From Escherichia phage ECML-1: 64,000 nucleotides of DNA. Positions 5,291-47,903 of this stretch are shown piece by piece. Numbering within the stretch: position 1 is the stretch's first letter; each line of letters opens with the position of its first letter. Below the pieces are notes generated by a model that searched no databases, was not told where the DNA came from, and was given only the letters and a program-made list of their open reading frames with translations. A program made the position numbers and the translations under genes. The stretch is taken from sequence record OL631478.1; one strand, given 5' to 3'.

Positions 5291-5292
5291 TT

Positions 5293-28866: not shown

Positions 28867-28874
28867 GTAACAGT

Positions 28875-29366: not shown

Positions 29367-29380
29367 GAGAGAGATAAAAT

Positions 29381-31162: not shown

Positions 31163-31176
31163 AAGTATATGATAAG

Positions 31177-31197
31177 AGGCTCCTACGGGAGCCTTTT
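31177..31197 (+). terminator. intrinsic terminator
   Basis: ggctcc-tacg-ggagcc followed by ttttt. Confidence 0.7.
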
Positions 31198-31215
31198 TAA
31201 TTTCTGGAGAAGATT

Positions 31216-31551: not shown

Positions 31552-31709
31552 AAATTTTACTGTCACTTGGTGGCGTAGCAGTGTTTGTTTACCTTCTTTG
31601 TAAGTACTATGCAGAGCACAAAAAATGTGACTACTGTAATGGGGAAGGTTATACAAGAGCAGGTTGTTGCCCTATGTGTGGTGGTTCTGGTAAAATGTTT
31701 AACAAGTAA
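31533..31709 (+). CDS. small membrane zinc-ribbon protein (58 aa, not in ORF track)
   Basis: MQAYWIEILLSLGGVAVFVYLLCKYYAEHKKCDYCNGEGYTRAGCCPMCGGSGKMFNK; one transmembrane segment plus CxxC..CxxC. Confidence 0.3.
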   Translation: MQAYWIEILLSLGGVAVFVYLLCKYYAEHKKCDYCNGEGYTRAGCCPMCGGSGKMFNK

Positions 31710-31737
31710 TTTAACAGTAAACTAAGAGGAAAGTATT

Positions 31738-34104: not shown

Positions 34105-34183
34105 AGTGTTTGACAAGGGGCTTCAAAGCCCCTTAGAATAGCCTCACAAATTGATTGATTAACTAACAAGAGAGAGTAATAAG

Positions 34184-35293
34184 ATGACTACTAAAACTAA
34201 AGCACAGATTGACGCAGAAATTTACAAACTGGTTAAAGAAGGTAAGCTGACCAAAACAGCTATTGCACAGAAATTTAACACTTCAACCCGTTCAGTTGGT
34301 CGTGCTGTAGAGCGTCATGAAGCAACCTTAAAAGGGAAGAAGAAGGTGACTTCTACACCAGCTACGAAGACTTTGAAGCAAGTTGCTAAGACTTTTAAAA
34401 AGAAAGCTGGCAAACCAGTTGAAAAGGTCGTTAAAGACGCTGTACAGAAAGCTCCAGTAAATAAACTGCACGAAGCTATGCAGAAAGATGACAAGATTGA
34501 GTACATGATTACTGGTGATTCTGTAATTATGACTTATGGTTCAGAATCTGAAATTGTTGAGTCTACTCATCCGAACTATCAAGAGATTGTAGTTCATGTT
34601 GTGAAAGGTGAGTTCAAGAAAGCATTTGAACTGATGAACATTCGTAAGTCTATCGAAAACTTCACTCAGGGTGCTATCACAATCAAAGGCGACAAGCTAT
34701 TCTACGGTGCTGTTGAGATGCGTTCTACTCTGGTTGACCGTATTCTTCACATGATGAAAACTGGCGATAAAGGTTTTGAACGACTTGTAATGTTCTTCGA
34801 AAAACTGATGGAAAACCCATCTAAAGATTCTGTAGAACAACTTTGGGGATTTGTATCTCACCTTGATGTTGAAATTGATGAAGAAGGCTACATCATTGGT
34901 TGGAAGAAAGTCTCTACTCGTGAAGGCAAGCTGGTTGACTCTCACACCTACAAAGTGCCTAATGATTTGGGTAACATTGTAGAAATGCCACGTTGGATGG
35001 TTGATAATAACCGTAACGTAACTTGCTCTCAAGGTCTTCATGTTGGTGCTTGGGATTATGTTCGTTGCTTCTCAGGTGATACAATCCTGAAGGTTCGCGT
35101 ACATCCACGAGATGTTGTATCTGTTCCAACTGATTACAACGATATGAAGATGCGTTCCTCTCGTTATGAAGTTGCAGCAATCGTTGATAATCAACGTAAA
35201 GTGCTGGAAGCATGGGACGGTAAGACTGAAGCTTTGCATGTCATCGTTGGCACTGCTGGTGAACTCATCTCTCAACGTAAACGTGAAATCTAA
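34184..35293 (+). CDS. hypothetical protein (rIIB-like by position)
   Basis: 369 aa ORF directly after the rIIA-like gene; assignment is positional only. Confidence 0.3.
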   Translation: MTTKTKAQIDAEIYKLVKEGKLTKTAIAQKFNTSTRSVGRAVERHEATLKGKKKVTSTPATKTLKQVAKTFKKKAGKPVEKVVKDAVQKAPVNKLHEAMQKDDKIEYMITGDSVIMTYGSESEIVESTHPNYQEIVVHVVKGEFKKAFELMNIRKSIENFTQGAITIKGDKLFYGAVEMRSTLVDRILHMMKTGDKGFERLVMFFEKLMENPSKDSVEQLWGFVSHLDVEIDEEGYIIGWKKVSTREGKLVDSHTYKVPNDLGNIVEMPRWMVDNNRNVTCSQGLHVGAWDYVRCFSGDTILKVRVHPRDVVSVPTDYNDMKMRSSRYEVAAIVDNQRKVLEAWDGKTEALHVIVGTAGELISQRKREI

Positions 35294-35308
35294 TAAGTAA
35301 TTTCTTAA

Positions 35309-35333
35309 AAGGCTGCTTCGGCGGCCTTTTTTA
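35309..35333 (+). terminator. intrinsic terminator
   Basis: aaggctgc-ttcg-gcggcctt followed by ttttt. Confidence 0.6.
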
Positions 35334-35393
35334 TTTGTATTTTGTGCAGAGTGCTGTATAATTGTTGTCACGATAAACTAAACAGGAGAACCA

Positions 35394-35942
35394 ATGAAGA
35401 AATTGATTCTAGGTTTGTGCTTAATGTTTACAGCACACTTATCTTATGCAGTTGACTGCCCAGAGCTATCAATTAGCCAAAAAGTGAACATGTTAAAAGC
35501 TTACCAGTATGGTGAGAATAACATGGGGAAAGGTTGGGGTATCACTCTAGCAGCTATAGCCTTACAAGAGTCAGAGTTAGGTCTGAAGGTAGAAAATAAA
35601 AAGACCCATGACTATGGTATCTTCCAGAATCACTTGAAGACTGTTGTAAAGCGTAACAAAATTAGTCCTAATGTTGCTAAAAAGAAACTCTTAAAAGATT
35701 TTGACTATGCCGCAAAAGAAACACATAAAGAGCTTGAGTTTTGGACGAAGGTACATGGTCACCCAAAGTCAAAGAAGACTTTACAAAAAGTTTTAGCATC
35801 ATATAATGCTGGGTATTCGTACAGAATCCCTAAAGCTAAGAAATACTCTCAAGATGTCTATAACAATATGAAAGTTATCGCTCAATGTGAATTTGCAACA
35901 AACATTTCTAAGGTAAATCATGAAAAAATTAAGAAAGTCTGA
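35394..35942 (+). CDS. secreted protein, possible lytic transglycosylase (SLT-like)
   Basis: Signal peptide MKKLILGLCLMFTAHLSYA; AIALQESELGL...DYGIFQ resembles the SLT catalytic motif. Confidence 0.4.
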   Translation: MKKLILGLCLMFTAHLSYAVDCPELSISQKVNMLKAYQYGENNMGKGWGITLAAIALQESELGLKVENKKTHDYGIFQNHLKTVVKRNKISPNVAKKKLLKDFDYAAKETHKELEFWTKVHGHPKSKKTLQKVLASYNAGYSYRIPKAKKYSQDVYNNMKVIAQCEFATNISKVNHEKIKKV

Positions 35943-36615
35943 TGAAGTCCTGTGCCACGCTTATGACTTGCATCCTCATGAGTTAGGTCTTGATTCCTGT
36001 GTATGGACTCCAGAACAGTGCAGAGATTTTGAAGACACTGCAAGAGAGGTTGTATGTTCACTTGAAGAGTTCCACACATCAGAACCCATTGTGAACGTTG
36101 TGGACAAAGAGACTGGACAAACTATAGGTGTAAGGCGTGATAGTTTAGTGATAGTCAATAAAGACCTTGTAGAAAAAGGTAACCTCATCTTAGCAGATAT
36201 TGATGGTGTTCTTACAAATTTTAATCACGAAGATTGCTCAACGGAATTGACTGATGGGTCATTCTCACAGTACACTAATCTTCTTGATTCTGTAAGAGCA
36301 AAACCAACATATGTTTTCAACATTATTGATGCAATTGCAAATCATGCAGCAGTTGGACTCTTGACAGCAAGAGGTGAATCTCAGAGAATACCTACTGAGA
36401 TGTTTTTAAGGCACAATATAGAGCATGATTACTTGCTTTTTATGCGTGGTTTTGGAACTAACTCTATAAGTGCAGAAAGTTTGAAAGTGAGGATGATTCA
36501 GTCTTGCATTCTTCCTTACTTTAATATAGTATGCTTTATAGAAGATACAGAGAAGAATGTTCAGAAGGTAAACAGAATCCTTCCACACATTAAAACTATG
36601 TTAGTTAAACATTGA
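35920..36615 (+). CDS. hypothetical protein
   Basis: 231 aa ORF. Confidence 0.45.
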   Translation: MKKLRKSDEVLCHAYDLHPHELGLDSCVWTPEQCRDFEDTAREVVCSLEEFHTSEPIVNVVDKETGQTIGVRRDSLVIVNKDLVEKGNLILADIDGVLTNFNHEDCSTELTDGSFSQYTNLLDSVRAKPTYVFNIIDAIANHAAVGLLTARGESQRIPTEMFLRHNIEHDYLLFMRGFGTNSISAESLKVRMIQSCILPYFNIVCFIEDTEKNVQKVNRILPHIKTMLVKH

Positions 36616-37091
36616 GAGAAGAACTTATGAACAATATCATTACGGTAGCACTGGACGATACGGCAAACAAATCTGAAGTAGTTCGTAAAATGATTCAAGG
36701 TAACTTTGAAGGTAAAATTTTCCGTGCTGTTAATGTAAAAGCTGATGGTAGCATTCGCGAATATCGTGCATTGTTGAACGTTAAGAAGCACGTAAAAGGT
36801 GTTGGTTCAACGACTGCACACAAAGAAAACCTGATGACTATCTATGATATGGGTAAGGCTTCAGAGTTAGGTGCTGAAGGTATCGTTAAAGAAGGTGCTC
36901 CGTATCGCTCTTTCAATCTGGAAACTACTCTTATGCTTTCCTTTACAAGTGGTTCCAAAACAATCACTTATCTCTTTACTGATGCTGCAACGGTATCTGC
37001 TATTAAGGATAGCACTGTCAAAGCTGGCGTAGTTGCTGCTGCAAAAGCTTCTTCGATGGCTGCGAATATCCTTGCTAAAGTCCTCGGTTAA
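36612..37091 (+). CDS. hypothetical protein
   Basis: 159 aa ORF. Confidence 0.45.
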   Translation: MREELMNNIITVALDDTANKSEVVRKMIQGNFEGKIFRAVNVKADGSIREYRALLNVKKHVKGVGSTTAHKENLMTIYDMGKASELGAEGIVKEGAPYRSFNLETTLMLSFTSGSKTITYLFTDAATVSAIKDSTVKAGVVAAAKASSMAANILAKVLG

Positions 37092-37103
37092 GGTTAAGAT
37101 ACA

Positions 37104-37125
37104 GGCTCCTTCGGGAGCCTTTTTC
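37104..37125 (+). terminator. intrinsic terminator
   Basis: aggctcc-ttcg-ggagcct followed by ttttt. Confidence 0.7.
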
Positions 37126-37143
37126 ATTTTAGGAGATTGTTAA

Positions 37144-37491
37144 ATGACATTTAAAGAGTTCTGTCAAGCTACTTTCATAATTGTTTTCTTAGTTGGGGCA
37201 GGTGTCTGGGGAGGATACTCTTACAGAGACTACCAAGTTGCTGAAACTGAGCTAAATAATGAGAAGCTGATAAGTGTTGCTAAAGATGCTTATCAGGAAG
37301 GTTTAGCCACACTCAGCACCAATTACAAAAATGATTTGAAAGACGTGCTTGCTAAGAATAAGCATACAAAAGAGGTACTAACGTATGAAAAGACTAAGCC
37401 AGAGTTTTATAATGTTTGTGTTACTGATAATTATGTCAGGGTGTTCAACGAACAAAGTGAACAGTACATTCAAAAACTCCCAAGTAAGTGA
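37144..37491 (+). CDS. membrane protein, i-spanin-like
   Basis: N-terminal transmembrane segment FIIVFLVGAGVWGGYSY followed by a charged helical region. Confidence 0.35.
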   Translation: MTFKEFCQATFIIVFLVGAGVWGGYSYRDYQVAETELNNEKLISVAKDAYQEGLATLSTNYKNDLKDVLAKNKHTKEVLTYEKTKPEFYNVCVTDNYVRVFNEQSEQYIQKLPSK

Positions 37492-37654
37492 GAGTGACAA
37501 GTACACTCAAGAAGAATCAAGATTCACTGTCAAAGGTAATACTGGTAGTGATGTGGCAGCAGCCCTTGAGTTTTATCGTGATGGTTTTTACCAGTGCACA
37601 ATCAAAGCTAATAACCTTATTGATATGATTTTATTAGGAAACAAACAGCAATGA
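37385..37654 (+). CDS. lipoprotein, o-spanin-like, overlapping previous gene in another frame
   Basis: MKRLSQSFIMFVLLIIMSGC has a lipobox-like cysteine; starts inside 37144..37491 in a different frame. Confidence 0.35.
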   Translation: MKRLSQSFIMFVLLIIMSGCSTNKVNSTFKNSQVSESDKYTQEESRFTVKGNTGSDVAAALEFYRDGFYQCTIKANNLIDMILLGNKQQ

Positions 37655-37920
37655 CAGAGAATGAAGACACTTTCTATGTAGAAGGGTACTTACTGCTACC
37701 ACGACCAAAAGAAACTTATATGCGGGTTGATTTCTCACCAACCATTATGGATAACGTGATGTGTCATATCTTTATGCAAGGTGTCACAGCACAGCTTAAG
37801 CATGTTGGTAAAGAGTGCAAAATAAAGGTTGACACTCATCCAGAAATCAAAGAGAATCACTACACATGGTTCTTACCAGACTCTAAAGAAATCTTAGCAG
37901 TTCTCAAAACGAGGAAGTAA
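37651..37920 (+). CDS. hypothetical protein
   Basis: 89 aa ORF. Confidence 0.45.
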   Translation: MTENEDTFYVEGYLLLPRPKETYMRVDFSPTIMDNVMCHIFMQGVTAQLKHVGKECKIKVDTHPEIKENHYTWFLPDSKEILAVLKTRK

Positions 37921-37922
37921 CT

Positions 37923-38246
37923 ATGCAGATTAATGGAAGAGACTTTGTAGCCGTTTACTACGAGAAAGATAAAGAAGTTGGCGTAGCACAAGTATCTTAT
38001 GGCAATGGTAAGTGGTTGTATGGGACAATCGCAGTAGTTGGAACAAGAAGTGATACAAAAACTTTTAAAGATTGTGTTGACCTTCTTGAAGAATCCATCC
38101 AGAATCATTGGTGTCTGATATGGATGACTGACAACGAAGTGATAGAACGTTTCAAAAAGATTGATATCAACATTGACAGTATTGAGCATGTTGATTTATA
38201 TGAGCTAACTGAGAAGGTAAACTATGAAAGCTCTAGAGGTAATTGA
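37923..38246 (+). CDS. hypothetical protein
   Basis: 107 aa ORF. Confidence 0.45.
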   Translation: MQINGRDFVAVYYEKDKEVGVAQVSYGNGKWLYGTIAVVGTRSDTKTFKDCVDLLEESIQNHWCLIWMTDNEVIERFKKIDINIDSIEHVDLYELTEKVNYESSRGN

Positions 38247-38451
38247 TAAAGACACTGGAGAAGTTACATCAGCATGTGTTTTCGTTAGTGACGACACAGT
38301 GATACCGTTTTACAATCTCGATAACTTTAGTTTCACAGGGATAACTCCAGAAGAATACTTTGAAGACCTCACCTTTGCCAGAATTTCTATAGATACATTT
38401 TATAAATGCTTCTATGATGAAGGCAAAGAATTACGAGAAACTGAACTATAA
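38224..38451 (+). CDS. hypothetical protein
   Basis: 75 aa ORF. Confidence 0.4.
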   Translation: MKALEVIDKDTGEVTSACVFVSDDTVIPFYNLDNFSFTGITPEEYFEDLTFARISIDTFYKCFYDEGKELRETEL

Positions 38452-38463
38452 GGTGTATATTAT

Positions 38464-38664
38464 ATGGCTGACTTCTGCAAAGACTGTTCTATCGAAATGT
38501 TCGGACGTGATACAGGTGACTTAAAAGGTCTTATCACTGAAGATGACTTTAAAGCTGGCTATGCAATGCCAGTAATCTGTGAAGGTTGCGGGTGTATCTG
38601 GGTAGACCACGAAGGACAACGTGTAAAACCTTCAGAAGATAAAGAATCTTGGGAGAGATGTTAA
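38464..38664 (+). CDS. small zinc-ribbon protein
   Basis: CKDC...CEGCGC motifs in 66 aa. Confidence 0.4.
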   Translation: MADFCKDCSIEMFGRDTGDLKGLITEDDFKAGYAMPVICEGCGCIWVDHEGQRVKPSEDKESWERC

Positions 38665-39444
38665 ATGGGTATTGTAAAAGTTGTAAAAGGTAACTTACTG
38701 GCTGCCTTCAAAAACACAGATATTGAGTTAATTGCTCATGGTTGCAACTGTCGTAACCTCATGGGTGCTGGAATCGCTCAAAAAATTGCTAAGATTTTCC
38801 CAAAAGCTGAAGAAGCTGACCGGAAATTCCATAAAAAGTTTGGCTACAGTGCTCATGATATCGGATACCAGATGGTTGGTGAGGTGTCACATGCTCGAAC
38901 GGAGTATGGTTACATTTTTAACCTATATACACAGTTGGATGTTGGGAAGTGTGCATCATACCGATACTTAGTGGAGTCACTAGAAAAACTCCGTAAATTT
39001 TGCTGGCTGCACAACATTCGTAAGATTGGTTTACCCATGATTGGGGCAGGTATAGGCGGTTTAGATGCACAAGCTGTGAAAAGCCTCATTAATAGTGTTA
39101 TGTATAACGTTGATGTGTACCTCTACGTCTATGATGAAGCAATGGCAAGTGTAGTTACCCCTAAGTATGCTACCTCAGCACCACAATTCTATGATGGTGT
39201 CGTGCTAAGTGACGGGAAGACTAATCAAGTTACCCTCTATCAGCTTGTTGATGGCAAGGTTGAGGTTAGTTACCCTCTGGTTAGTGAGATGGGTATGTGT
39301 AACAGTGAAATGTTCCCAGTTGACCCGTTTGGAAGATATGAAGGGGTGTTCTTTGATAACTACCCAGCAGCATACATCTACACAACAAATCAGGATGAAG
39401 TTCACTACTTGCTGTATTCTAAAAAGTTCAAATTCATAAGCTGA
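38665..39444 (+). CDS. macro-domain (ADP-ribose binding/processing) protein
   Basis: IELIAHGCNCRNLMGAGIAQKI and GLPMIGAGIGGLD resemble the two glycine-rich macro-domain motifs. Confidence 0.45.
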   Translation: MGIVKVVKGNLLAAFKNTDIELIAHGCNCRNLMGAGIAQKIAKIFPKAEEADRKFHKKFGYSAHDIGYQMVGEVSHARTEYGYIFNLYTQLDVGKCASYRYLVESLEKLRKFCWLHNIRKIGLPMIGAGIGGLDAQAVKSLINSVMYNVDVYLYVYDEAMASVVTPKYATSAPQFYDGVVLSDGKTNQVTLYQLVDGKVEVSYPLVSEMGMCNSEMFPVDPFGRYEGVFFDNYPAAYIYTTNQDEVHYLLYSKKFKFIS

Positions 39445-39477
39445 TTAGCACTTCATAGTATCTACAAATCATCTAAG

Positions 39478-39524
39478 AAGGCTGCCTAACCCATTGAAAA
39501 ATTTAAGGTAAGGCGGCCTTTTTC
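39478..39524 (+). terminator. intrinsic terminator (long-loop hairpin)
   Basis: aaggctgcct...aggcggcctt followed by tttt. Confidence 0.45.
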
Positions 39525-39527
39525 ATT

Positions 39528-39680
39528 TTCAATTTGTGCAGGTATCTGTAGGGGTCTGTACAGATATCCCAAAAAATCTCATCGCCGGATAGAAAAATCA
39601 TTTTCAAAACGTGCAGACCCCGCTCAGGTCGGGCAAGAAAAATCATTTTAGAATTGTGCAGGTAGGTTTTTATAGAGAGC
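39528..39680. repeat. three direct repeats of aaaatcatttt-N-gtgcag motif
   Basis: tcattttcaatttgtgcaggt, aaaaatcattttcaaaacgtgcagaccc and aaaaatcattttagaattgtgcaggtagg; followed by a CT-only tract ccctctccccctcttactccccctctccc (39701-39729). Confidence 0.5.
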
Positions 39681-39840
39681 CAGACCAACCCCTCTCCCCC
39701 TCTTACTCCCCCTCTCCCTAAAAGTCAAGAGAAAAATTTGTAGCGGATTGAAAAATAATTCTTGATTTGTGTTCTGTTTTGTGGTAGTCGTGTGCGCCCG
39801 TTTCATTACAGTTTTGCCAAAAATATTTTTAAAATTTTTC

Positions 39841-39869
39841 TTGACTCTTTGAGTGTGGTTATCTAATAT
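39841..39869 (+). promoter_or_regulatory. sigma70-like promoter driving the small-gene array
   Basis: TTGACT, 17 nt spacer, TAATAT. Confidence 0.55.
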
Positions 39870-39875
39870 TTGCAT

Positions 39876-39932
39876 CAACGGGGAGGGAATGACCTTCCCC
39901 ACTAAATAAAGTCCTAAACTGGAGATTCAAAA
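39876..39932 (+). promoter_or_regulatory. type-1 cassette: 5' stem-loop plus conserved leader with RBS
   Basis: ggggagg-gaatgac-cttcccc hairpin then actaaataaagtcctaaactggagattcaaaa immediately before the ATG. Confidence 0.6.
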
Positions 39933-40316
39933 ATGGCTTATCGTGCACCTAAATTCATCAACAAAGACAACTTTCGCAACGCACTGGAGAAGTCACTTGA
40001 TGAAAATTTTAAAGGTAACATTATCATTGTTCACGCATTCAATTTTAAGTATGATGTAAACGGGAATAGAATCAACCATTACACGGCAACCATGTTAGAT
40101 GGTACTCTTTCAAGTGAAAAAGCCATTTTACATGCACTTGCTGGACGTGGTAAAAACCTGATAAAATGTGATAAGAGACGTTATCAGGGTGGCGCATATG
40201 GTTATGATGATGCTGTTTATCATCTTGAAAATATGGGCTATAAAGTAGAAAAAGCTGGAGTGTCTCAAATAATCGGTAGTGATGGTTATGTAACTATCTT
40301 CAAAATTAACAAATAA
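39933..40316 (+). CDS. hypothetical small protein
   Basis: 127 aa ORF preceded by a type-1 cassette; ends in KINK, which lies inside the next cassette. Confidence 0.55.
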   Translation: MAYRAPKFINKDNFRNALEKSLDENFKGNIIIVHAFNFKYDVNGNRINHYTATMLDGTLSSEKAILHALAGRGKNLIKCDKRRYQGGAYGYDDAVYHLENMGYKVEKAGVSQIIGSDGYVTIFKINK

Positions 40317-40328
40317 AGTACTTTACAA

Positions 40329-40402
40329 GGGGCTTATAGTTCGATAAAGTAAGCCCCAGATAAAGAGCTTTACCACTAAATCCTAAATTGGAGAACTTAA
40401 AA
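40329..40402 (+). promoter_or_regulatory. type-2 cassette: ggggctta/taagcccc hairpin plus conserved leader
   Basis: ggggcttatagttcgataaagtaagcccc then agataaagagctttaccactaaatcctaaattggagaacttaaaa before the ATG. Confidence 0.6.
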
Positions 40403-40696
40403 ATGGCTATTATCAAAAACGTTGTAATTACCGCAAAGACTCGTGATGACGCTCGTATCATGGCTAAAAAGTTATGCGGGAAAGTGGTTGACAACGGAAA
40501 ACAATCTGCTGTAAGGTGGGGCGTGAAGGTTGATAAGCAGTTGAAGTTAAAAAATTCACCGATAAACCTTTTTACATGTGTAAACACTATCGGGAAGACA
40601 AGTGTATACACGAAAAAGGCATATATTAGACGCGTAGCATTAACATCCCCCATTCGTACAATGAGAAGTTATGCAAAGCTGAAAATTAACAAATAA
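40403..40696 (+). CDS. hypothetical small protein
   Basis: Start at ATG 40403 in the conserved leader context (ORF-track start 40388 is a TTG); ends in KINK. Confidence 0.5.
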   Translation: MAIIKNVVITAKTRDDARIMAKKLCGKVVDNGKQSAVRWGVKVDKQLKLKNSPINLFTCVNTIGKTSVYTKKAYIRRVALTSPIRTMRSYAKLKINK

Positions 40697-40707
40697 AGTA
40701 CTTTACA

Positions 40708-40781
40708 GGGGGCTTAAAAGTTGATATCTTAAGCCCCAGATAAAGAGCTTTACCACTCAATCCTAAACTGGAGATTCAAAA
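40708..40781 (+). promoter_or_regulatory. type-2 cassette
   Basis: gggggcttaaaagttgatatcttaagcccc plus conserved leader; loop differs from other copies while the stem is kept. Confidence 0.6.
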
Positions 40782-41294
40782 ATGAAAACTGTAGACGCTA
40801 CCTTTGAAGTTGTAAAAGAAAAATTCACTATTATCTACGAAGCGGTAAATTGCTTTGAAGCAAGCCATAATCTTGATAATTGGAAGTTTACAGATGACCA
40901 TCAAGGCGGTGTGACGATTAAAAATCCTAACTGTCAGCGTAATGAATTTAAATATGCAATCCCTTTACATTACAGCCTTAAACAGCTTTCAAGTGACTAT
41001 GCAAAACAAGGCCGTGAGAATCCATCGAAAGAGGCTTACACGAGCTTACAGAAAGAACTAGAAAGAGATTTAGAGGCTTCAGAGTATAACCTTGCCGCGA
41101 AAGTTGTGGATGCAAACGGTAGCACGGTTTTAGAAAGTTTTTATCTTGGTTATGCTTTCGATTGGTGCTATCGTGACGGCGATGATTTAGAGGATAGACT
41201 AAAAGAAGAGGTGAACAACGCAGACGCAGAATCTGAAGTATTAGAACGTTTGGAATCGTTGAAAGACTCAGTGATGAATATCTTTAAGAACTAA
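40782..41294 (+). CDS. hypothetical protein
   Basis: 170 aa ORF. Confidence 0.55.
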   Translation: MKTVDATFEVVKEKFTIIYEAVNCFEASHNLDNWKFTDDHQGGVTIKNPNCQRNEFKYAIPLHYSLKQLSSDYAKQGRENPSKEAYTSLQKELERDLEASEYNLAAKVVDANGSTVLESFYLGYAFDWCYRDGDDLEDRLKEEVNNADAESEVLERLESLKDSVMNIFKN

Positions 41295-41310
41295 ATAGAT
41301 TTCTTTACAC

Positions 41311-41386
41311 GGGGTTATCAGACTGATAAGATAGCCCCAGATAAAGAGCTTTATTCAAATCAACCCTTAAACTAGGAGATTCTAAA
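41311..41386 (+). promoter_or_regulatory. type-2 cassette (variant stem)
   Basis: ggggttatcagactgataagatagcccc; stem changes are compensatory relative to other copies. Confidence 0.55.
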
Positions 41387-41683
41387 ATGAAATTATCAAA
41401 TAAAGTCCGTGAAAATTTAAGCAAGTTACTTAATAAAATTGATTTCATTGAAACATCAAGGAATAGTCATGATGTTATGGAATGGTTACACGGAAAAATC
41501 AAAGGCCGTCGTGTAGTGATTTGCTTATGGAACAGTTGCAGGGAGTATAAAAAACCTGTATTGCAAGTCAATATTTATGATGATACTTTTAAAAGTCCTG
41601 TAAAGTCTAAAAGCGATTTATTAGAATCCTATGAGATAACTGTAAATGGCAAAGTATCACGTAAAGAGGAAACACCATGTTAA
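41387..41683 (+). CDS. hypothetical protein
   Basis: 98 aa ORF. Confidence 0.5.
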   Translation: MKLSNKVRENLSKLLNKIDFIETSRNSHDVMEWLHGKIKGRRVVICLWNSCREYKKPVLQVNIYDDTFKSPVKSKSDLLESYEITVNGKVSRKEETPC

Positions 41684-42009
41684 TGACTGGTATCACTGCA
41701 ATCATTGCCATTTTCGCGCTATATAAGGCATATAAAGCCTATAATCTGGCAAGTAAGGCAATCACACAACAGGTTAATAATAACCTTGTAATGAGCTTTC
41801 TAGAGCGTTTAAGTGATGAACAATTAAAACGGCTAGAAATGAGCTTTAGATTCAGGGCGAGAACTTATCAAATCAGTGACATTTTCAAAGATAATTTTCA
41901 ATTAGTCGATGATTATAATTCTCTGATAAATGCTTTAAATATTAGTGACTTAAAAGATTATCACGCTGTAATTGTTCAAGAATTGAGCAAACGAAAACAA
42001 AACTGTTGA
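41677..42009 (+). CDS. hypothetical membrane protein
   Basis: 110 aa; N-terminal hydrophobic segment MLMTGITAIIAIFALY; overlaps the upstream gene by 7 nt; no cassette. Confidence 0.45.
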   Translation: MLMTGITAIIAIFALYKAYKAYNLASKAITQQVNNNLVMSFLERLSDEQLKRLEMSFRFRARTYQISDIFKDNFQLVDDYNSLINALNISDLKDYHAVIVQELSKRKQNC

Positions 42010-42098
42010 CACTGATTTTTAGATAGATTAAATTACACATCAACGGGGAGGCAATAACCTCCCTACTAAATAAAGTCCTTAAACTAGGAGATTCAAAA
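42006..42098 (+). promoter_or_regulatory. type-1 cassette with promoter (TTGACA-17-TAAATT), stem-loop and leader
   Basis: TTGACA at 42006, TAAATT at 42029, hairpin gggagg-caataa-cctccc, then the conserved leader. Confidence 0.6.
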
Positions 42099-42371
42099 AT
42101 GTATACTACTAACAACGGTCGTACTTTAAATGTCACTCTACGTCACTATGTTGATGGTGTAATGTGCTTTGATGATTTACAAGCTGAGCAACACATCTTA
42201 GATTGGCAAGTAGCAGGACTCCAAAAAACTGCTACCGGATACGGGAAAAAGATTCCAACTAGCTGGAAAGTACACTATGAAGGCCGTTTGCGCAGAATTT
42301 ATCAAGATGTGCAAAGCAATAGCGCATCGAGTTACATTATAGTAAAAGGCAAAAAACTGCATTTAATGTAA
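42099..42371 (+). CDS. hypothetical protein
   Basis: 90 aa ORF. Confidence 0.5.
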   Translation: MYTTNNGRTLNVTLRHYVDGVMCFDDLQAEQHILDWQVAGLQKTATGYGKKIPTSWKVHYEGRLRRIYQDVQSNSASSYIIVKGKKLHLM

Positions 42372-42383
42372 AGTACTTTACAA

Positions 42384-42457
42384 GGGGCTTATAGTTCGAT
42401 AAAGTAAGCCCCAGATAAAGAGCTTTACCACTAAATCCTAAATTGGAGAACTTAAAA
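42384..42457 (+). promoter_or_regulatory. type-2 cassette
   Basis: ggggcttatagttcgataaagtaagcccc plus conserved leader. Confidence 0.6.
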
Positions 42458-42862
42458 ATGGCTATTAATAACCGTGAATTATCAATTTTAAAAGCACGTT
42501 TGACCGTTAACCGGATTAATGTTATCACGTCATCAGCACCAGATGAAACACTGCAAAACATTATTGGGAAGATTCAAAGTGTTATCTTAGACGTTGAAAG
42601 CGTAAAAAATTCATTGGCTGACGTTGCAGCAGGTATCACACTAGACGGTGCGCAATATGAAATGTCCGACATGTTAGGCAAATCTAAGGTAATGAATAAA
42701 GAGTTAGATTTGAAAATGTTCCGATTTGCTGTTAAAGTGTGGCTATCTGTCGAGTATGATGCTAACTTTGCAATCGCTGACTTTTTCGCCACTTGGTTGC
42801 AGCGTAATTTGACTAATCATGACTTCCGCGATATCTGTGATGCAATTTATGCAGAACTCTAA
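42458..42862 (+). CDS. hypothetical protein
   Basis: Start at ATG 42458 (MAINNREL) in the conserved leader context. Confidence 0.5.
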   Translation: MAINNRELSILKARLTVNRINVITSSAPDETLQNIIGKIQSVILDVESVKNSLADVAAGITLDGAQYEMSDMLGKSKVMNKELDLKMFRFAVKVWLSVEYDANFAIADFFATWLQRNLTNHDFRDICDAIYAEL

Positions 42863-42871
42863 AAAATTTTG

Positions 42872-42966
42872 TTGACACTGGTTTTTAGATAGATTAAATT
42901 ACACATCAACGGGGAGGGAATGACCTTCCCCACTAAGTAAAGTCCTTAAACTAGGAGATTCAAAAA
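42872..42966 (+). promoter_or_regulatory. type-1 cassette with promoter (TTGACA-17-TAAATT)
   Basis: TTGACA at 42872, TAAATT at 42895, hairpin 42911-42931, then the conserved leader. Confidence 0.6.
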
Positions 42967-43170
42967 ATGGCTATTATTAATGATTTAACCATTGAAACTA
43001 CACACATCAAAGATATCAAAGTTGGCGATATAGTCCTTTCCCACGGCGTAGAAAAAACTGTCACTGCAAAGGATATCAAAGAGGATTCTTTCATGGGTAG
43101 GACTCTCTTCGGTGATTCTTATTGCTTAGGCTATCTTGCAGTTTTAAAAGTTGTCAAAAATAACAAATAA
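42967..43170 (+). CDS. hypothetical small protein
   Basis: 67 aa; ends NNK followed by the cassette sequence. Confidence 0.5.
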   Translation: MAIINDLTIETTHIKDIKVGDIVLSHGVEKTVTAKDIKEDSFMGRTLFGDSYCLGYLAVLKVVKNNK

Positions 43171-43182
43171 AGTACTTTACAA

Positions 43183-43256
43183 GGGGCTTAAAAGTTGATA
43201 ACTTAAGCCCCAGATAAAGAGCTTTACCACTAAATCCTAAACTGGAGATTCTAAAA
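43183..43256 (+). promoter_or_regulatory. type-2 cassette
   Basis: ggggcttaaaagttgataacttaagcccc plus conserved leader. Confidence 0.6.
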
Positions 43257-43505
43257 ATGATGAACTACTTTAACATTCCCGATACCTGTAGATTATTGAC
43301 ACAAGAAGAAAATTTGGGTAAACCTTTCATTTACCACATGCCAGATAACACGGCAAAAACTTATAGTTACAATGTTAACCGTTTCACCGCATACGCTGCA
43401 AAGAACGGCTATAGGTTGGTTACTCAAAAAGTAATGCTGGTTACAACTGCTGGCGAGATTCCTACAGTTGCAGTCAAACTAGTTTTCTCAAAGAAAGTTA
43501 AATAA
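43257..43505 (+). CDS. hypothetical small protein
   Basis: 82 aa ORF. Confidence 0.5.
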   Translation: MMNYFNIPDTCRLLTQEENLGKPFIYHMPDNTAKTYSYNVNRFTAYAAKNGYRLVTQKVMLVTTAGEIPTVAVKLVFSKKVK

Positions 43506-43517
43506 AGCACTTTACAA

Positions 43518-43590
43518 GGGGCTTATAGTTCGATAAAGTAAGCCCCAGATAAAGAGCTTTACCACTAAATCCTAAACTGGAGATTCAAAA
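43518..43590 (+). promoter_or_regulatory. type-2 cassette
   Basis: ggggcttatagttcgataaagtaagcccc plus conserved leader. Confidence 0.6.
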
Positions 43591-44133
43591 ATGAAATGCT
43601 ATCACGGAACTACTCAAGAAAATTTCCTCAACCTGATTAATAACGGTGATAAACCATCAGGCGCATGGAATTGTTCGGATATGGACGGCAATTTTTACGT
43701 GTATCCAGAAAATAAAATCTATGGCGACGATGATGAAGAGATAACATCGGAAGGTATTCAGCAAGCTCTAGGCAATGCCACTATCACCGCAGCTTTTCAG
43801 ATGAAGACTCAAAATATTGTTATCTTAGAACTCGATATTCCAGAGGATGAGCTAAACGATGATTATTCTTGTGATAATATGTCGAGTGTAGCAAGTTTTA
43901 CAGAGTACTTTGATGTAAATTGGATTAAAAAGGTCTATACAACAGAGTTTAACGCTATGTATTCACCTTTTTGTCTTCCTTCATTGGATAACCCAAATTT
44001 AAACTATCTTGATGAGTCTCTGGAGCTTCTTGCTAAAAGTGTTCAACAGTCGGACAGTATTCAGGTTTTTTGTGACATCATGGATACACTGACAGGAAAC
44101 ATTGCAGAAGAGGATTTAAAGAGCTTTTTCTAA
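43591..44133 (+). CDS. hypothetical protein
   Basis: 180 aa ORF. Confidence 0.55.
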   Translation: MKCYHGTTQENFLNLINNGDKPSGAWNCSDMDGNFYVYPENKIYGDDDEEITSEGIQQALGNATITAAFQMKTQNIVILELDIPEDELNDDYSCDNMSSVASFTEYFDVNWIKKVYTTEFNAMYSPFCLPSLDNPNLNYLDESLELLAKSVQQSDSIQVFCDIMDTLTGNIAEEDLKSFF

Positions 44134-44165
44134 AAACCTATGCAATCACCTTATAAACACTAATC

Positions 44166-44186
44166 AGCCCCTTGTAGGGGCTTTTA
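44166..44186 (+). terminator. intrinsic terminator
   Basis: cagcccc-ttgt-aggggct followed by ttt. Confidence 0.5.
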
Positions 44187-44199
44187 GAGGGCTTAAATC

Positions 44200-44433
44200 A
44201 TGCTTACAACCATTTACCTCATCCTTTCCATCTGTAATGGCCATTCATGTGACTTTAAAGGGCTTGAAGAGTTTACAGGAAGTAAAGAAAATGCTATTCA
44301 AGTTTGCCAGATAGCAAGGAAAGACTATCCCGCTAGTGATGATATACAATGTTACTTTAAGACAGAAGATGACGACGGAATCTATTTCGACAGTGTTGAC
44401 GGTCAATATGAAATTGTCATTGAAAAAGACTAG
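44200..44433 (+). CDS. hypothetical small protein (possible signal peptide)
   Basis: 77 aa; hydrophobic N-terminus MLTTIYLILSICNG; own GAGGG Shine-Dalgarno, no cassette. Confidence 0.45.
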   Translation: MLTTIYLILSICNGHSCDFKGLEEFTGSKENAIQVCQIARKDYPASDDIQCYFKTEDDDGIYFDSVDGQYEIVIEKD

Positions 44434-44524
44434 ACAAGCCCGATAAAAGTCTGTAAATTGTCAATCAACGGGGAGGGAATGACCTTCCCCACTAAGTAAA
44501 GTCCTTAAACTAGGAGATTCAAAA
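44431..44524 (+). promoter_or_regulatory. type-1 cassette with promoter (TAGACA-17-TAAATT)
   Basis: Hairpin ggggagggaatgaccttcccc at 44470-44490, then the conserved leader. Confidence 0.55.
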
Positions 44525-44866
44525 ATGGCTTATGTAACCGTAATTACCGATAAAGCTGGCGCATCTTGGTCAACTCAGGTTAGTGATAAGATGTCACCTA
44601 TGCAGTGCCTAAAATACTTTGAACAGTGGAACAAAGGCGAGGACACAAGCCCCTTTCAAGTGATGCAGATTATCCATGTAGACAACGAAGGAAATAAAAC
44701 GACGCTGAATAGTGAGTACTATGCAAGCCGTTTTGAAACGAGAAGTAAAACAATGAAACTTTTACGTGAATCCGGTTATGCCCATATCGCCGCGTTAATC
44801 TGGGATGACCTGCTAAAAAGTCAGCGTATCAGCTATGTAAAACCTGAAAAAATATTCATCAGTTAA
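44525..44866 (+). CDS. hypothetical protein
   Basis: 113 aa ORF. Confidence 0.5.
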   Translation: MAYVTVITDKAGASWSTQVSDKMSPMQCLKYFEQWNKGEDTSPFQVMQIIHVDNEGNKTTLNSEYYASRFETRSKTMKLLRESGYAHIAALIWDDLLKSQRISYVKPEKIFIS

Positions 44867-44996
44867 TCAATAACTTACAAAAAACTTTTAAAAAAAATGT
44901 TGACAATCCCTCTTGACATTGGTAACTTTGTTCGAGGGGGTTTATCTAAAAGGGATTTACTTAAAAGATTCTTTATAGATAAGCTTAAAAAATTGC

Positions 44997-45087
44997 TTGC
45001 AATCAGCTATCAAAACAAGTAAATTACTAATCAACGGGAGGGATGACCTCCCCACTAAATAAAAATCCTTAAACTAGGAGAGTCAAA
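44997..45087 (+). promoter_or_regulatory. type-1 cassette with promoter (TTGCAA-17-TAAATT)
   Basis: Variant hairpin gggagg-gatga-cctcccc and conserved leader. Confidence 0.5.
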
Positions 45088-45618
45088 ATGAACAAATTTC
45101 AAGCTATCAACTTCATTCGTTCAAATGCTGTAATGTCTAAGCCTGTAAAAGATACATACGAATTCCGTTGTAATGGGGTACATTTCGCAACAATCACCAA
45201 ATCAGAAAACGGGGCTTATTACGTTCATCGTCGTAATGTTTCAACCGTTGTAGTCTCTCACTTTATGCAAGCTGTAGCGGAATTATTACCGTTATTCTTA
45301 GAGATTTACTTAGATGAGTGTAAAAACGTTCACAACCACGTTAAAAGCCTTTTAAACGGTTATAAAATGGCTTATGAACGCTCTATCAAGTCCTTAAACA
45401 AGTTTTACAATGCACCTGCAAATACTGTTTCAATGGCTTATGATGTAAACGGTGAGTTAGTTAGTCTCTTTAAAGTGGAAGAAATTAAACTGTATAATTT
45501 ACGTCCTAGTGGTTACTCTAAGACTCTTGGTGAAGGTTTATCCTTTAATATCAAGAACTTAGAAAAAACTTTAAAAGACATTGAAAAAGATATTGACGAG
45601 ACAATTAAAAGTCTGTAA
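45088..45618 (+). CDS. hypothetical protein
   Basis: 176 aa ORF. Confidence 0.55.
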   Translation: MNKFQAINFIRSNAVMSKPVKDTYEFRCNGVHFATITKSENGAYYVHRRNVSTVVVSHFMQAVAELLPLFLEIYLDECKNVHNHVKSLLNGYKMAYERSIKSLNKFYNAPANTVSMAYDVNGELVSLFKVEEIKLYNLRPSGYSKTLGEGLSFNIKNLEKTLKDIEKDIDETIKSL

Positions 45619-45680
45619 ATTGTCAATCAACGGGGAATGACCTTCCCCACTAAATAAAATCCTAAACTGGAGTTATCAAG
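45606..45680 (+). promoter_or_regulatory. type-1 cassette overlapping the upstream stop codon
   Basis: aaaagtctgtaaattgtcaatcaacgggg is shared with the 44441-44473 copy; hairpin ggggaatgaccttcccc. Confidence 0.5.
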
Positions 45681-45944
45681 ATGGAAAACGTAGAATTAAC
45701 CACACTTTTACAAATTGCAACCGACAAAGAAGATGTAGCATTATTTCACCGTATCGAAAGCGATTTATTCAATGGTGAAATCATCAAAGAATCTTACGAA
45801 GTTGTCGGATTCAAAGATGGTAAAGCATTTGGATTCTTTGACCTCGACAAAGGCAACGCTGTTACAAAGTACGATGTTTTGTCTTGTGAGATTCTTACAA
45901 AATACAACGAAAAAAGGCTTGCAACATACGCCAATATGCAGTAA
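45681..45944 (+). CDS. hypothetical small protein
   Basis: 87 aa ORF. Confidence 0.5.
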   Translation: MENVELTTLLQIATDKEDVALFHRIESDLFNGEIIKESYEVVGFKDGKAFGFFDLDKGNAVTKYDVLSCEILTKYNEKRLATYANMQ

Positions 45945-46008
45945 ATTACTAATTAACGGGGGATGACCTCCCCCACTAAGTAAAGTCCTAAACTGGAGAA
46001 TCTAAATT
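45939..46008 (+). promoter_or_regulatory. type-1 cassette overlapping the upstream stop codon
   Basis: cagtaaattactaattaacgggggatgacctcccccactaagtaaagtcctaaactggagaatctaaatt. Confidence 0.5.
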
Positions 46009-46257
46009 ATGTCAACTATCCGCGTAACTGTTAATGCTTATGGCTGCCACGAACTTGATGCAAAATTCGATATCGGTGGAACAAATAACACCTTTGACCT
46101 TATCAAAATGCTGATTCAGCAGGTGCTACCAGATTATAACCCTACCGATGACTTTTGGAAGGACGCTGTAAAAGAAGCCATAAACGAGGAATATCACTAC
46201 CACTACTGGGGAGAAAAAATTGTCTCCCTGTACTACAACAAGCAAGATTATAACTAA
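46009..46257 (+). CDS. hypothetical small protein
   Basis: 82 aa ORF; last gene of the rightward array. Confidence 0.5.
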   Translation: MSTIRVTVNAYGCHELDAKFDIGGTNNTFDLIKMLIQQVLPDYNPTDDFWKDAVKEAINEEYHYHYWGEKIVSLYYNKQDYN

Positions 46258-46319
46258 TCGACGCAGCGGGGCTAAATAGCCCCAGATACCTGAAAAGCTC
46301 CTTCTCATAGGGGCTTTTT

Positions 46320-47860
46320 TACGTCTATGTAATAGCCTCTATACAACCCTTTCCCTTTCCTTTCCAGAATCTATCCCAGACCTTAAAAGCAATAACTCTA
46401 TAGTCTACTCTATAACCTCTTATCAAATCAACTTAAATAAAAGCCAATAACCCCAGAAAGGGGATGGCCCATTTAAACGCTCTATAAAGCTCTATAACAG
46501 CCTTATCAACCTAACTTAAGGGATTGCATTACCTCACCCTTAAAAGCCCTTTATAAAGCTTCCCAGAGACTTAAAAGAATCTTATAAGGGTGTAAGCTTT
46601 ATCATCTCGTTAGTATTCTTGTGAATATCTAAAAAGGGCTTGTTAGTGTCTTAAAAGTATGTTATAGGGGCTATAAAGTTACTTTGAAGTTACGTAAAAG
46701 TTACGTAAATGCTAGCCCCCTTAACATTTTCTTAACAATTTCTTAACAAACCCTACATAGTTATGCTTTTAAGGCACTTGTTAGCAACTTGTTAGCCCCT
46801 TGTTAAATCTCTGTTAAGACCACGTAAAAACCTTGTAAGAGTCTTTGACATAGCCTTTAAAGCCCCTGTAAAGCCTTATAAAGAGGTATCTGTACAGTTG
46901 GGGTGTAATTACTAGGAAGAGGCTTAAAAGAGCTTACAAGGAGCTATAGAGAGCTTTTAAAAGGTATGTTTAGAGAATCACTAAGAGGGAAAGGGAACGA
47001 TAAGAAAAGAGTAGTGACCATGTTAATAGCTTGTTAAAAAGATTAAACACTTGTTAGGAACTTGTTAATTATCTTAACAAAATAACTCTTAAAAATTAAC
47101 TTGTTAGCTCTTGTTAGTCATCTGTTAAGACTCTGTAAAGACCATGTATTGACTGTTAAGAACTTGTTACAGCCTTGTTAGTTATGTTAAGAATCTGTTA
47201 AGACCTCTGAAGAGATGTTAAGAGCTTGAGAGAGTTGTTAAGAGATTGTTAAGGATATTTTAAAATTTTGCAAAGTACTTGTAAGGGAGTTGTTAAGGGC
47301 TACCAAGTAGATATACATCTCCTACAGATATTTTTCAGTTCCTTCAAAGACCCTAAAAAATGACTTGATAGTCCTATTTTATAAAAATTTTAAAAATCTG
47401 AATAATTACCTATACAGTCTTTCTAAAATACAGGTAATAACAGGCTTATAAGATACCTTGTTAGTACCGTGTTAGACCTTGTGAGATAAGGTCTGTGAAG
47501 ACATTCCTGTTAAGTTTGTTAAAACAGTCTATATAGAGGCTTAGTAATACCTAGTGAACACCTATAGAGAGTATCATAGCTGACATAGAGATTAAGAGGT
47601 GTATAGGAGCTTCTAAGAGGATGTAGAAAGATGGTTAAGGTGATTGTATAGGTTGTTAAGAAGGCTTGTTAGAAGAGTGTTTAGATGGCTATTTAGAAGG
47701 GCTATACAGAGGGCTATTAAGACCACTAGATAGTTACTAAGATACTATATAGTACTATATAACTATATAGAGAGTAAGATTAAGAAGGTTGTTAAGAAGG
47801 ATAGATATTTTATTCACATATGATGGTGACCCAGAGGTTGGGACAACCGATAAAATTTTA
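46320..47860. repeat. ORF-free 1.5 kb region with a dense array of short TGTTA(A/G)G-type iterons
   Basis: No ORF of 60 aa or more on any frame; more than 30 occurrences of cttgttag/ctgttaag/ttgttaag-like motifs between about 46700 and 47700; plus actatatag direct repeats at 47740-47770. Confidence 0.6.
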
Positions 47861-47867
47861 TAAAAAT

Positions 47868-47893
47868 TAAAAAGCCCCCAATTAAGGAGGCTC
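47868..47893 (-). terminator. intrinsic terminator (minus strand)
   Basis: Reverse complement reads agcctcc-ttaatt-gggggct followed by ttttt; same hairpin family as the plus-strand terminator at 10595. Confidence 0.6.
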
Positions 47894-47903
47894 TTAAGAT
47901 ATT

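Follow-up and report, generated by a model that had tools for sequence, protein, structure and literature searches.

In Escherichia phage ECML-1 (record OL631478.1), 15 small genes are arrayed on the + strand between positions 39933 and 46257 of a 64,000-nucleotide stretch of DNA (the window), and 13 of them are preceded by one of two conserved regulatory cassettes, here called Type 1 (seven copies) and Type 2 (six copies). The window belongs to a Felixounavirus (a Felix O1-like myovirus) of the subfamily Ounavirinae. With a probability of about three in four, the region is an early accessory-gene array built of self-contained expression modules that are shuffled by recombination between their cassettes. 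Each module would comprise a sigma70 promoter, a G/C stem-loop, a standard leader with a Shine-Dalgarno (SD) sequence and one gene, or occasionally two. The anatomy and conservation of the cassettes, the covariation of their RNA structure and the make-up of their junctions were observed directly, and from these a model of promoter activity, hairpin roles and recombination is proposed. The comparison covered the homologous region of 16 relatives (17 genomes with the window) and three other genera.

Promoter and leader elements of the two cassettes

Repeat finding, which returned Type 2 as a family of 99 nt and Type 1 as one of ~72 nt, and motif scans agree with the initial annotation on the number of genes and on the number and type of the cassettes. 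Scans of the whole 64-kb window located six Type 2 and seven Type 1 cores, all on the + strand; the 13 copies lie within 6.2 kb (39.8 to 46.0 kb), and the remaining 58 kb hold none. The pattern GGGG..CCCCAS gave seven matches against 0.43 expected. The cassettes overlap upstream stop codons and, as had been noticed earlier, impose shared C-terminal codons on three genes, which end in (I/N)NK-TAA (KINK, KINK and KNNK; repeat family D7). Two genes have no cassette of their own. Gene 41677 (genes are named here by their first position in the window) has a start that overlaps the upstream stop codon, and on this evidence it is translationally coupled to the upstream gene. Gene 44200 is preceded by a separate hairpin.

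All 13 cassettes in the window carry a -35 element, a 17-nt spacer and a -10 element of the form TAnnnT. The 20 nt upstream of the -35 have a mean AT content of 0.78, against 0.61 for random 20-mers of the window, of which 4% reach 0.78. The Type 1 promoter had been described as ending in TAAATT; this holds for six copies, but the first copy has TAATAT as its -10. Among the relatives, TAAATT, TAGTAT or TAATAT lies 17 nt from a TTGACA-like hexamer (TTGACA, TTGCAA, TAGACA, TTGACG, TTGACT or TTGATT) in 68 of 69 scorable distinct Type 1 copies.

Type 2 had been described as a hairpin and leader only. The hairpin is there, but a promoter, TTTACA-N17-TAnnnT, is present as well. A consensus promoter scan returned TTTACA-N17 followed by TAAAGT, TATCTT or TAAGAT at Type 2 copies, and the window has 11 exact matches to TTTACA-N17-TAnnnT where 1.65 would be expected, six of the 11 being cassettes. 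Among 73 distinct Type 2 copies from the 17 genomes, TTTACA is found in every one and TAnnnT at exactly 17 nt in 72, while the three interior bases of the -10 take nine different forms. A wider set, drawn from five Ounavirinae lineages (Felixounavirus, ESCO45, Mooglevirus, Suspvirus and Erwinia Kolesnikvirus), gives a similar picture: all 79 distinct copies keep TTTACA and the T, A and T of the -10, with variation at the interior three bases. Because of this pattern the element reads as a sigma70 -10, and Type 2 as a probable sigma70-type promoter whose -10 is located in a hairpin loop. A second promoter at the repeated motif AAAGAGCTTTACC was considered and rejected, as no -10 lies at a suitable distance; the motif fits better as a 3' arm, that of the outer and middle helices described below.

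Behind the promoter, a leader of 24 nt (TCCTAAACTGGAGATTCAAAAATG) is identical in Type 1 and Type 2, and an SD sequence, CTGGAG or TAGGAG, stands 8-10 nt ahead of the ATG in 13 of 13 cassettes. Host RNA polymerase would read both cassette types as promoters. In Felix O1, reverse transcription PCR found the cassette-preceded open reading frames (ORFs) 16, 20, 21 and 22 to be maximal at 5 min (PMC3185647).

Hairpins and the three-helix RNA structure

All cassette hairpins in the window are predicted to fold stably (-9 to -15 kcal/mol, z -2.4 to -5). The Type 1 hairpin, GGGGAGGG-AATGA-CCTTCCCC together with shortened forms, begins 10 nt after the -10, which would place it at about +3 to +5 in the predicted transcript. 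Although its G- and C-runs have slipped, each of 32 distinct variants folds, with energies of -7 to -15 kcal/mol. Since it follows the predicted start by only ~3-5 nt, the stem-loop would form the 5' end of the mRNA of its own gene, which it probably stabilises; it may also attenuate transcription arriving from upstream. The length of the G-run differs between genomes (GGGGGGGGG in KhF1, GGGGGGGGGG in pSJ21), and homopolymer slippage or sequencing error could account for this.

The Type 2 hairpin, taken earlier for an 8-bp stem, proves to be part of a larger structure. Its core of ~60 nt folds into three coaxial helices of ~20 bp in all (6+5+9), which span the stop codon, the -35 and AGATAAAGAGCTTTA. 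The outer helix (UAAAGU/GCUUUA) has the upstream stop codon in its 5' arm, and the 5' arm of the middle helix (CUUUA/UAAAG) is the -35 itself. Above these lie a 3x3 internal loop, a 9-bp upper helix and an 11-nt loop holding the -10, so that the arms bracket both spacer and -10. The near-invariance of AGATAAAGAGCTTTA after the upper hairpin is explained by its being the 3' arm of this structure. Predicted folding energies are -23 to -26 kcal/mol (z -3.2 to -6.3) in three genera, with one and the same fold predicted for a Mooglevirus and an Erwinia Kolesnikvirus.

Across the 79 distinct sequences, pairing is kept in 97.6% of 1485 cells, compared with 32-57% when the pairing is slid. Compensatory changes affect four pairs and 25 cells, against 4.7 in shuffled alignments, and none of 500 shuffles reached 25; G-C became U-A nine times in the outer helix and 11 times in the upper helix. 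The compensatory stem variants proposed for Type 2 are thus real, though few. G.U pairs, valid on the sense strand only, are frequent and therefore argue for a structure at the RNA level over a symmetric DNA operator. A search with Rfam covariance models assigned no family, giving only two sub-threshold chance hits in 39000-47000.

The predicted start of the cassette's own transcript follows the 3' arm of the upper stem, so the full Type 2 hairpin would form only in RNA derived from upstream. Its action would therefore be on RNA of the upstream module, through attenuation, 3' stabilisation or processing, and neighbouring modules would in this way be insulated. Of the array's hairpins, only that at 46292-46320 has the features of a rho-independent terminator, a G+C-rich hairpin directly followed by a U-run, and canonical terminators stand at the two ends of the array only. 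In Felix O1, terminators t13 and t23 bound the array, and the internal hairpins are not in the terminator list of the genome paper (PMC3185647).

Gene turnover and competing explanations

Among the 17 genomes the array ranges from nine genes in Felix O1 to 17 in KhF1, XTG1 and ASO1A. Comparison of these relatives for cassette-flanked gene swaps found modules present or absent with a single chimeric cassette at the junction. Four such events were aligned, and in each the 'empty' site holds exactly one intact cassette, seamless and chimeric, whose 5' side matches the left and whose 3' side matches the right cassette of the 'filled' state. They are a Type 2 x Type 2 event at gene 43257, a Type 1 x Type 1 event at gene 45681, a further Type 1 x Type 1 event at genes 42099 and 42458 in LF82P1, and a Type 1 x Type 2 event involving x7 plus x3, with its crossover in the shared 24 nt of the leader. 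Among 18 gene adjacencies that are new relative to the window, a single cassette is present in 14 and two in none.

A minority of cassettes are closest to a cassette of another slot, including paralogues of the same genome (XTG1, ESCO45, LF82P1, ASO1A and finno), and all four Type 2 copies of ESCO45 share a GGTG/CACC double change. This indicates that conversion between cassettes may occasionally take place. In the Mooglevirus Maleficent, a Type 1 cassette stands directly before the homologue of gene 43257. Erwinia phage SunLIRen has nine array-gene homologues in permuted order; the core of its Type 2-like cassettes is ~80% identical, and its array proteins are only 27-50% identical. The cassette-mediated shuffling put forward in the initial annotation is thus supported by chimeric junctions, novel adjacencies, homology-block ends (see below), conversion and permuted order.

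These observations suggest a simple pathway. Because 60-100 nt of near-identical sequence recur in direct orientation, every 300-600 bp, homologous recombination between cassettes could occur, either within a genome or between co-infecting relatives. Such recombination would delete, insert or swap whole modules, and each exchange would leave one functional cassette.

In SunLIRen (L017), further cassette types were seen at 2793-2861, 5281-5357, 7282-7345 and 7586-7649. One has the form TTGACA...GAGGGG-TTAAAAT-CCCCTC, with the -10 in the hairpin loop, another the form TTGCAA/TTTACA-GGGGTTA...TAACCCC, and the leader, CAACCCTTAyAAAGGAAT, differs from that described above. In GenBank phage records, Type 2 was found at 1338 places in 287 records and Type 1 at 1228 places in 243 records; among the matches listed, the cassette-bearing records are Ounavirinae or Felix O1-like, and a few carry the names of other hosts. 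A few records named for Staphylococcus or Campylobacter phages contain Felix O1-like sequence including the cassettes, and these are suspected to be mislabelled or contaminated entries.

Several observations weigh against the modular reading. Within the genus, gene order is strictly collinear, with single modules present or absent only, and for most cassettes the nearest sequence is the positional orthologue. No cassette is present at three of the 18 novel adjacencies (x13 to gene 42099, x21 to gene 44525 and, in ESCO45, gene 40782 to gene 41677); that of gene 38665 to x3 (ESCO45, Felix O1) was also called cassette-less, an uninspected call that might reflect a missed pattern match. Cassettes make up 19.6% of the region and contain 71 of 100 internal homology-block ends (28 of 41 on distinct bins, p about 2e-11), but as cassettes and intergenic space nearly coincide, this enrichment alone is no proof of mechanism, and it is partly expected from selection for intact genes. 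The exact single-cassette junctions would be the stronger argument. The covariation in Type 2 reflects few independent events and was tested on a structure derived from the same sequences, and the middle helix is unable to vary because it is also the -35. No internal hairpin is followed by a U-tract and the terminator consensus scan flagged none of them; the proposed attenuator role is therefore drawn from analogy with the promoter-early stem-loops (PeSLs) of T4-type phages. Finally, a literature search, in part too broad, yielded no data on transcript starts, termination or processing in any phage of the Ounavirinae.

Beside these stands an observation on two small ORFs, x13 (52 aa) and x21 (48 aa), which in ASO1A, finno and Seyj1-1 lie directly behind a Type 1 cassette and before the resident gene, with no cassette of their own. 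Their insertion or replacement does not fit a simple cassette-to-cassette exchange.

The Type 2 hairpin could also be an RNase III processing site such as those between the early genes of T7, a reading that is unlikely though by no means negligible, and one that complements the shuffling of expression modules without excluding it. Read-through RNA would be cut in or near the 3x3 loop, a protective 3' hairpin would stay on the upstream mRNA, and the 5' end of the downstream mRNA would nearly coincide with the cassette's own start. The coaxial helix of ~20 bp with its internal loop and 1-nt bulges, the conservation of this structure with covariation and sense-strand G.U pairs in five lineages, the missing U-tract and the almost invariant 3' arm are all consistent with such a site. 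However, cleavage is predicted from geometry, the helix is near the short end for RNase III substrates, the Type 1 hairpin (6-8 bp) is too short, and a reporter assay showed termination at PeSL stem-loops of similar style (PMC2839356). A more speculative idea, which is rather unlikely, is that Type 2 is dual-coded, being a promoter as DNA and, in upstream RNA, a structure cleaved (for example by RNase III) beside its own start site. If so, local initiation and processed read-through would give the same mRNA 5' leader and the upstream mRNA would gain a protective 3' hairpin; a promoter inside a processing site, found subfamily-wide and doubling as a recombination site, would be a design not described before.

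It is improbable that the hairpins are ordinary rho-independent terminators beside unrelated promoters, their repetition being mere reuse of a signal with no role in recombination. GenBank records of ASO1A, KhF1 and XTG1 do annotate Type 1 hairpins as terminators, WebGeSTer calls them in ASO1A, the hairpins are stable and the PeSL papers describe a terminator role (PMC2839356, PMC4122927). Yet the KhF1 and XTG1 records place them on the wrong, non-coding strand, and none of the internal hairpins is TransTerm-listed in Felix O1. The Type 1 hairpin, lying downstream of its own promoter, would end its own mRNA; on this ground and for want of a U-tract, intrinsic termination was rejected as a reading of the hairpins. 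Moreover, the chimeric junctions, the crossovers between Type 1 and Type 2 and the conversion between paralogues indicate that the repeats do recombine. Very improbable is a reading of the inverted repeats as DNA operators of a dimeric phage repressor of early promoters, the palindromic sites overlapping -35, spacer and -10 and the RNA structure being a by-product. The Type 2 inverted repeat does bracket the promoter core, the -35 is covered by a perfect 12-bp palindrome (TAAAGTACTTTA), and double-arm changes (GGGG/CCCC to GGTG/CACC) would keep symmetry too; Felix O1 ORFs 17, 19 and 23 also peak later than ORFs 16 and 20-22, so some regulation exists. The G.U pairs, however, form in sense-strand RNA only and break DNA symmetry (72 of 79 copies have U.G at one pair and, at two further pairs, 29 have U.G and 11 have G.U). 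The Type 1 stem, a purine run facing a pyrimidine run of variable length, is RNA-hairpin-like and atypical of an operator, and neither a candidate repressor nor, in any array protein, a Pfam DNA-binding domain was found. A single read-through operon from the promoter at 39841, with the cassettes as translational leaders or mRNA-stability elements only and with gene turnover by illegitimate recombination filtered by selection, is likewise very improbable. It would suit the most AT-rich upstream region at the first cassette, the terminators confined to the array ends and the highly conserved leader and SD. But a leader-only role offers no explanation for TTTACA and TA...T kept at exactly 17 nt in 79 copies while the surrounding loop varies, the Type 1 -35 and -10 are kept even inside upstream coding sequence, and the junctions are exact single cassettes, not ragged deletions.

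Array genes, flanking regions and known systems

Cassettes, genes and other features of the array are listed below; each of the 15 genes falls in its own PHROG family of unknown function.

Features of the cassette array of phage ECML-1, in window coordinates
Feature	Position	Strand	Details
Type 1 cassette 1	39841-39932	+	TTGACT-N17-TAATAT; stem-loop GGGGAGGG/CCTTCCCC at 39880-39900; leader and SD
Gene, 127 aa	39933-40316	+	phrog_4495, function unassigned in PHROG
Type 2 cassette 1	40314-40402	+	TTTACA (40322)-N17-TAAAGT in predicted three-helix hairpin; stop codon in outer stem
Gene, 97 aa	40403-40696	+	phrog_5089
Type 2 cassette 2	40694-40781	+	TTTACA (40702)-N17-TATCTT
Gene, 170 aa	40782-41294	+	phrog_4190
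Type 2 cassette 3	41295-41386	+	Divergent flanks; TTTACA (41304)-N17-TAAGAT; stem GGGGTTAT/ATAGCCCC
Two putatively coupled genes, 98 aa and 110 aa	41387-42009	+	ATGTTAA overlap at 41677; single cassette serves both
Type 1 cassette 2	42006-42098	+	TTGACA-N17-TAAATT; stem-loop 42045-42064
Gene, 90 aa	42099-42371	+	phrog_3436
Type 2 cassette 4	42369-42457	+	99 nt identical to Type 2 cassette 1
Gene, 134 aa	42458-42862	+	phrog_4327
Type 1 cassette 3	42872-42966	+	TTGACA-N17-TAAATT
Gene, 67 aa	42967-43170	+	phrog_3623
Type 2 cassette 5	43168-43256	+	TTTACA (43176)-N17-TAACTT
Gene, 82 aa	43257-43505	+	phrog_9030; in 7/17 genomes; probable gain or loss via Type 2 x Type 2 exchange
Type 2 cassette 6	43503-43590	+	
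Gene, 180 aa	43591-44133	+	phrog_3303; predicted ADP-ribosyltransferase-like fold
Hairpin, then cassette-less gene	44166-44433	+	AGCCCCTTGTAGGGGCT + TTTTAG; gene 44200-44433 (77 aa, phrog_4640)
Type 1 cassette 4	44431-44524	+	TAGACA-N17-TAAATT
Gene, 113 aa	44525-44866	+	phrog_4318
Type 1 cassette 5	44997-45087	+	TTGCAA-N17-TAAATT; stem-loop shortened
Gene, 176 aa	45088-45618	+	phrog_4725
Type 1 cassette 6	45593-45680	+	TTGACG-N17-TAAATT; -35 and spacer within upstream coding sequence, stop codon within -10
Gene, 87 aa	45681-45944	+	phrog_7022; in 9/17 genomes; probable Type 1 x Type 1 exchange
Type 1 cassette 7	45919-46008	+	TTGCAA-N17-TAAATT
Gene, 82 aa	46009-46257	+	phrog_4559; last gene of array
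Type 2-like remnant hairpin, then canonical intrinsic terminator	46268-46320	+	GGGGCTAAATAGCCCC-AGATA (46268-46288); terminator 46292-46320 closes array

Directly behind the last gene, the hairpin GGGGCTAAATAGCCCC-AGATA resembles half of a Type 2 cassette that has decayed. A spacer of 220 nt precedes Type 1 cassette 5, and this spacer measures 176-224 nt in all 15 genomes with that adjacency. At 44897-44940 it contains a promoter-like TTGACA (44900)-N17-TAACTT, in which an inverted repeat, CCCTC...GAGGG, brackets spacer and -10 in a Type 2-like design with no gene behind it. The sole ORF in the spacer, at 44897, has 41 aa and matches no PHROG family.

A Pfam search found no domain in any array protein. 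The protein of gene 40782-41294 gave an AlphaFold2 model with a predicted local distance difference test score (pLDDT) of 82 and no consistent fold match. For gene 43591-44133 (180 aa), a model of moderate confidence (pLDDT 73) predicts an ADP-ribosyltransferase (ART) fold. In this protein H5 is at least 90% conserved, G6-T7-T8 follows, and Y36, Y38 and E80 are invariant, a sequence pattern compatible with an H-Y-E triad; no match was found to Pfam, nor to the PDB by sequence-profile search. The gene thus encodes a putative ADP-ribosyltransferase. The array genes had been proposed as candidates for host takeover or anti-defence, a proposal which this predicted fold supports for one gene only.

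The region 39500-46600 is matched in 258 phage records, with 97% identity in Escherichia phages LMP33 and LMP25. The flanking 10 kb hold rIIA, rIIB, NAMPT, PRPP synthetase and polynucleotide kinase, as in Felix O1 relatives, and the array is bounded by a Macro-domain gene (38665-39444; Pfam E 1e-6) and a 1.6-kb non-coding stretch. By the annotation of relatives, NAMPT and ribose-phosphate pyrophosphokinase lie upstream of the array (28000-39444); with the Macro-domain gene and the putative ART, they may form a functional grouping around NAD and ADP-ribose. Between the Macro-domain gene and the first array promoter (39527-39665), a direct repeat of ~25 nt, (A)AAAATCATTTTnnAAnnTGTGCAGG, occurs three times; two copies came from repeat finding (family D8) and the third from direct reading of the sequence. 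The non-coding stretch after the array (46320-47900) is dense in iteron-like YTGTTAR heptamers, 26 of the window's 95 matches lying within 46640-47795, nearly all on the + strand and many spaced 10-11 nt apart. GenBank records of several relatives begin near this stretch and annotate a 'repeat_region' there; the stretch may serve as an origin, as a packaging site or as a genome terminus.

An array of this kind would extend PeSL-type modular shuffling from T4-type phages to an unrelated myovirus subfamily, the Ounavirinae. As such shuffling would then be found in both groups, repeated regulatory cassettes are suggested to be a general route of accessory-gene turnover in virulent phages. Felix O1-like phages are in wide use for typing of Salmonella and E. 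coli, biocontrol and therapy, and the cassettes mark where their genomes vary naturally. With promoter, leader and SD in place, the cassettes may also serve as ready-made, insulated insertion sites for engineering with payload genes. In the conserved Type 2 structure there is a well-defined candidate for a new family of cis-regulatory RNAs, and the predicted ADP-ribosyltransferase near Macro-domain and NAD-salvage genes points to NAD/ADP-ribose biology in early infection.

Several known systems bear comparison with parts of the array. The early region of T7 has RNase III sites that are intergenic, interrupted hairpins of ~20 bp, cleavage of which can leave a stabilising 3' hairpin. Type 2 is likewise an interrupted hairpin of ~20 bp between early genes, but T7 sites have no promoters, and cleavage of Type 2 is hypothetical. 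The ompA leader has a 5'-terminal stem-loop that stabilises its mRNA by protecting it against 5'-end-dependent decay; the Type 1 hairpin, ~3-5 nt from the 5' end of a transcript whose start site is predicted, resembles it in position. The protein of gene 43591-44133 is likened by predicted fold only to known ARTs (LT-A, pertussis S1, Tpt1/KptA, DarT and PARPs) and, by function, would compare with the early Alt, ModA and ModB of T4.

In Felix O1 itself, the genome paper lists two direct repeats of 57 bp and 39 bp (Whichard et al. 2010, PMC3185647). Of these, the longer (CTTTACATGGGGCTTAAAAGTCTGTAAAGTAAGCCCCAGATAAAGAGCTTTACCACT) corresponds to the Type 2 core and the shorter (TTGACACTGGTTTTTAGATAGATTAAATTACACATCAAC) to the Type 1 promoter; the paper does not count them among its promoters or terminators and draws no tie to gene turnover (PMC3185647). 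A literature search returned neither a transcriptome nor any paper that connects Felix O1-like phages with PeSLs, promoters or stem-loops. A 2025 paper on restriction of Felix O1 by a Gifsy prophage protein holds no escape-mutant link to the array.

The closest counterpart is the PeSL, known from RB49/phi1, T4/PST and KVP40/nt-1 among T4-type phages (Arbiol et al. 2010, PMC2839356; Comeau et al. 2014, PMC4122927). By definition a PeSL has a sigma70-like early promoter preceded by AT-rich DNA, a Gn-loop-Cn stem-loop that lies between -35 and -10, covers the -10 or follows closely behind it, and an SD and ATG at the 3' end; PeSLs are clustered in hyperplastic regions beside indels, and their promoter and terminator activities and the formation of mini-circles have been demonstrated by experiment (PMC2839356, PMC4122927). 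The likeness noticed in the initial annotation extends to every feature of this definition that can be read from sequence, namely promoter geometry with a 17-nt spacer, the AT-rich upstream region, the G/C-run stem-loop, SD and ATG, clustering before small ORFans in a hyperplastic region, and junctions within cassettes where close relatives differ by indels. Type 2 comes close to the T4/PST consensus, TTTACW-N17-TAYWAT, and the remnant GGGGCTAAATAGCCCC-AGATA is comparable to the 'half PeSLs' of T4-type phages. In other respects the two differ. By inspection without formal alignment, the Ounavirinae cassettes resemble PeSLs in no more than generic promoter signals; they fall into only two sharply defined types with one shared leader; Type 2 has an extended three-helix structure that includes stop codon and -35 and covaries across genera; and promoter, terminator and mini-circle activities are experimental for PeSLs, whereas the present cassettes are known from sequence alone. 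Overall, the system appears to be a lineage-specific instance of PeSL-type cassettes, apparently undescribed until now in the Ounavirinae.

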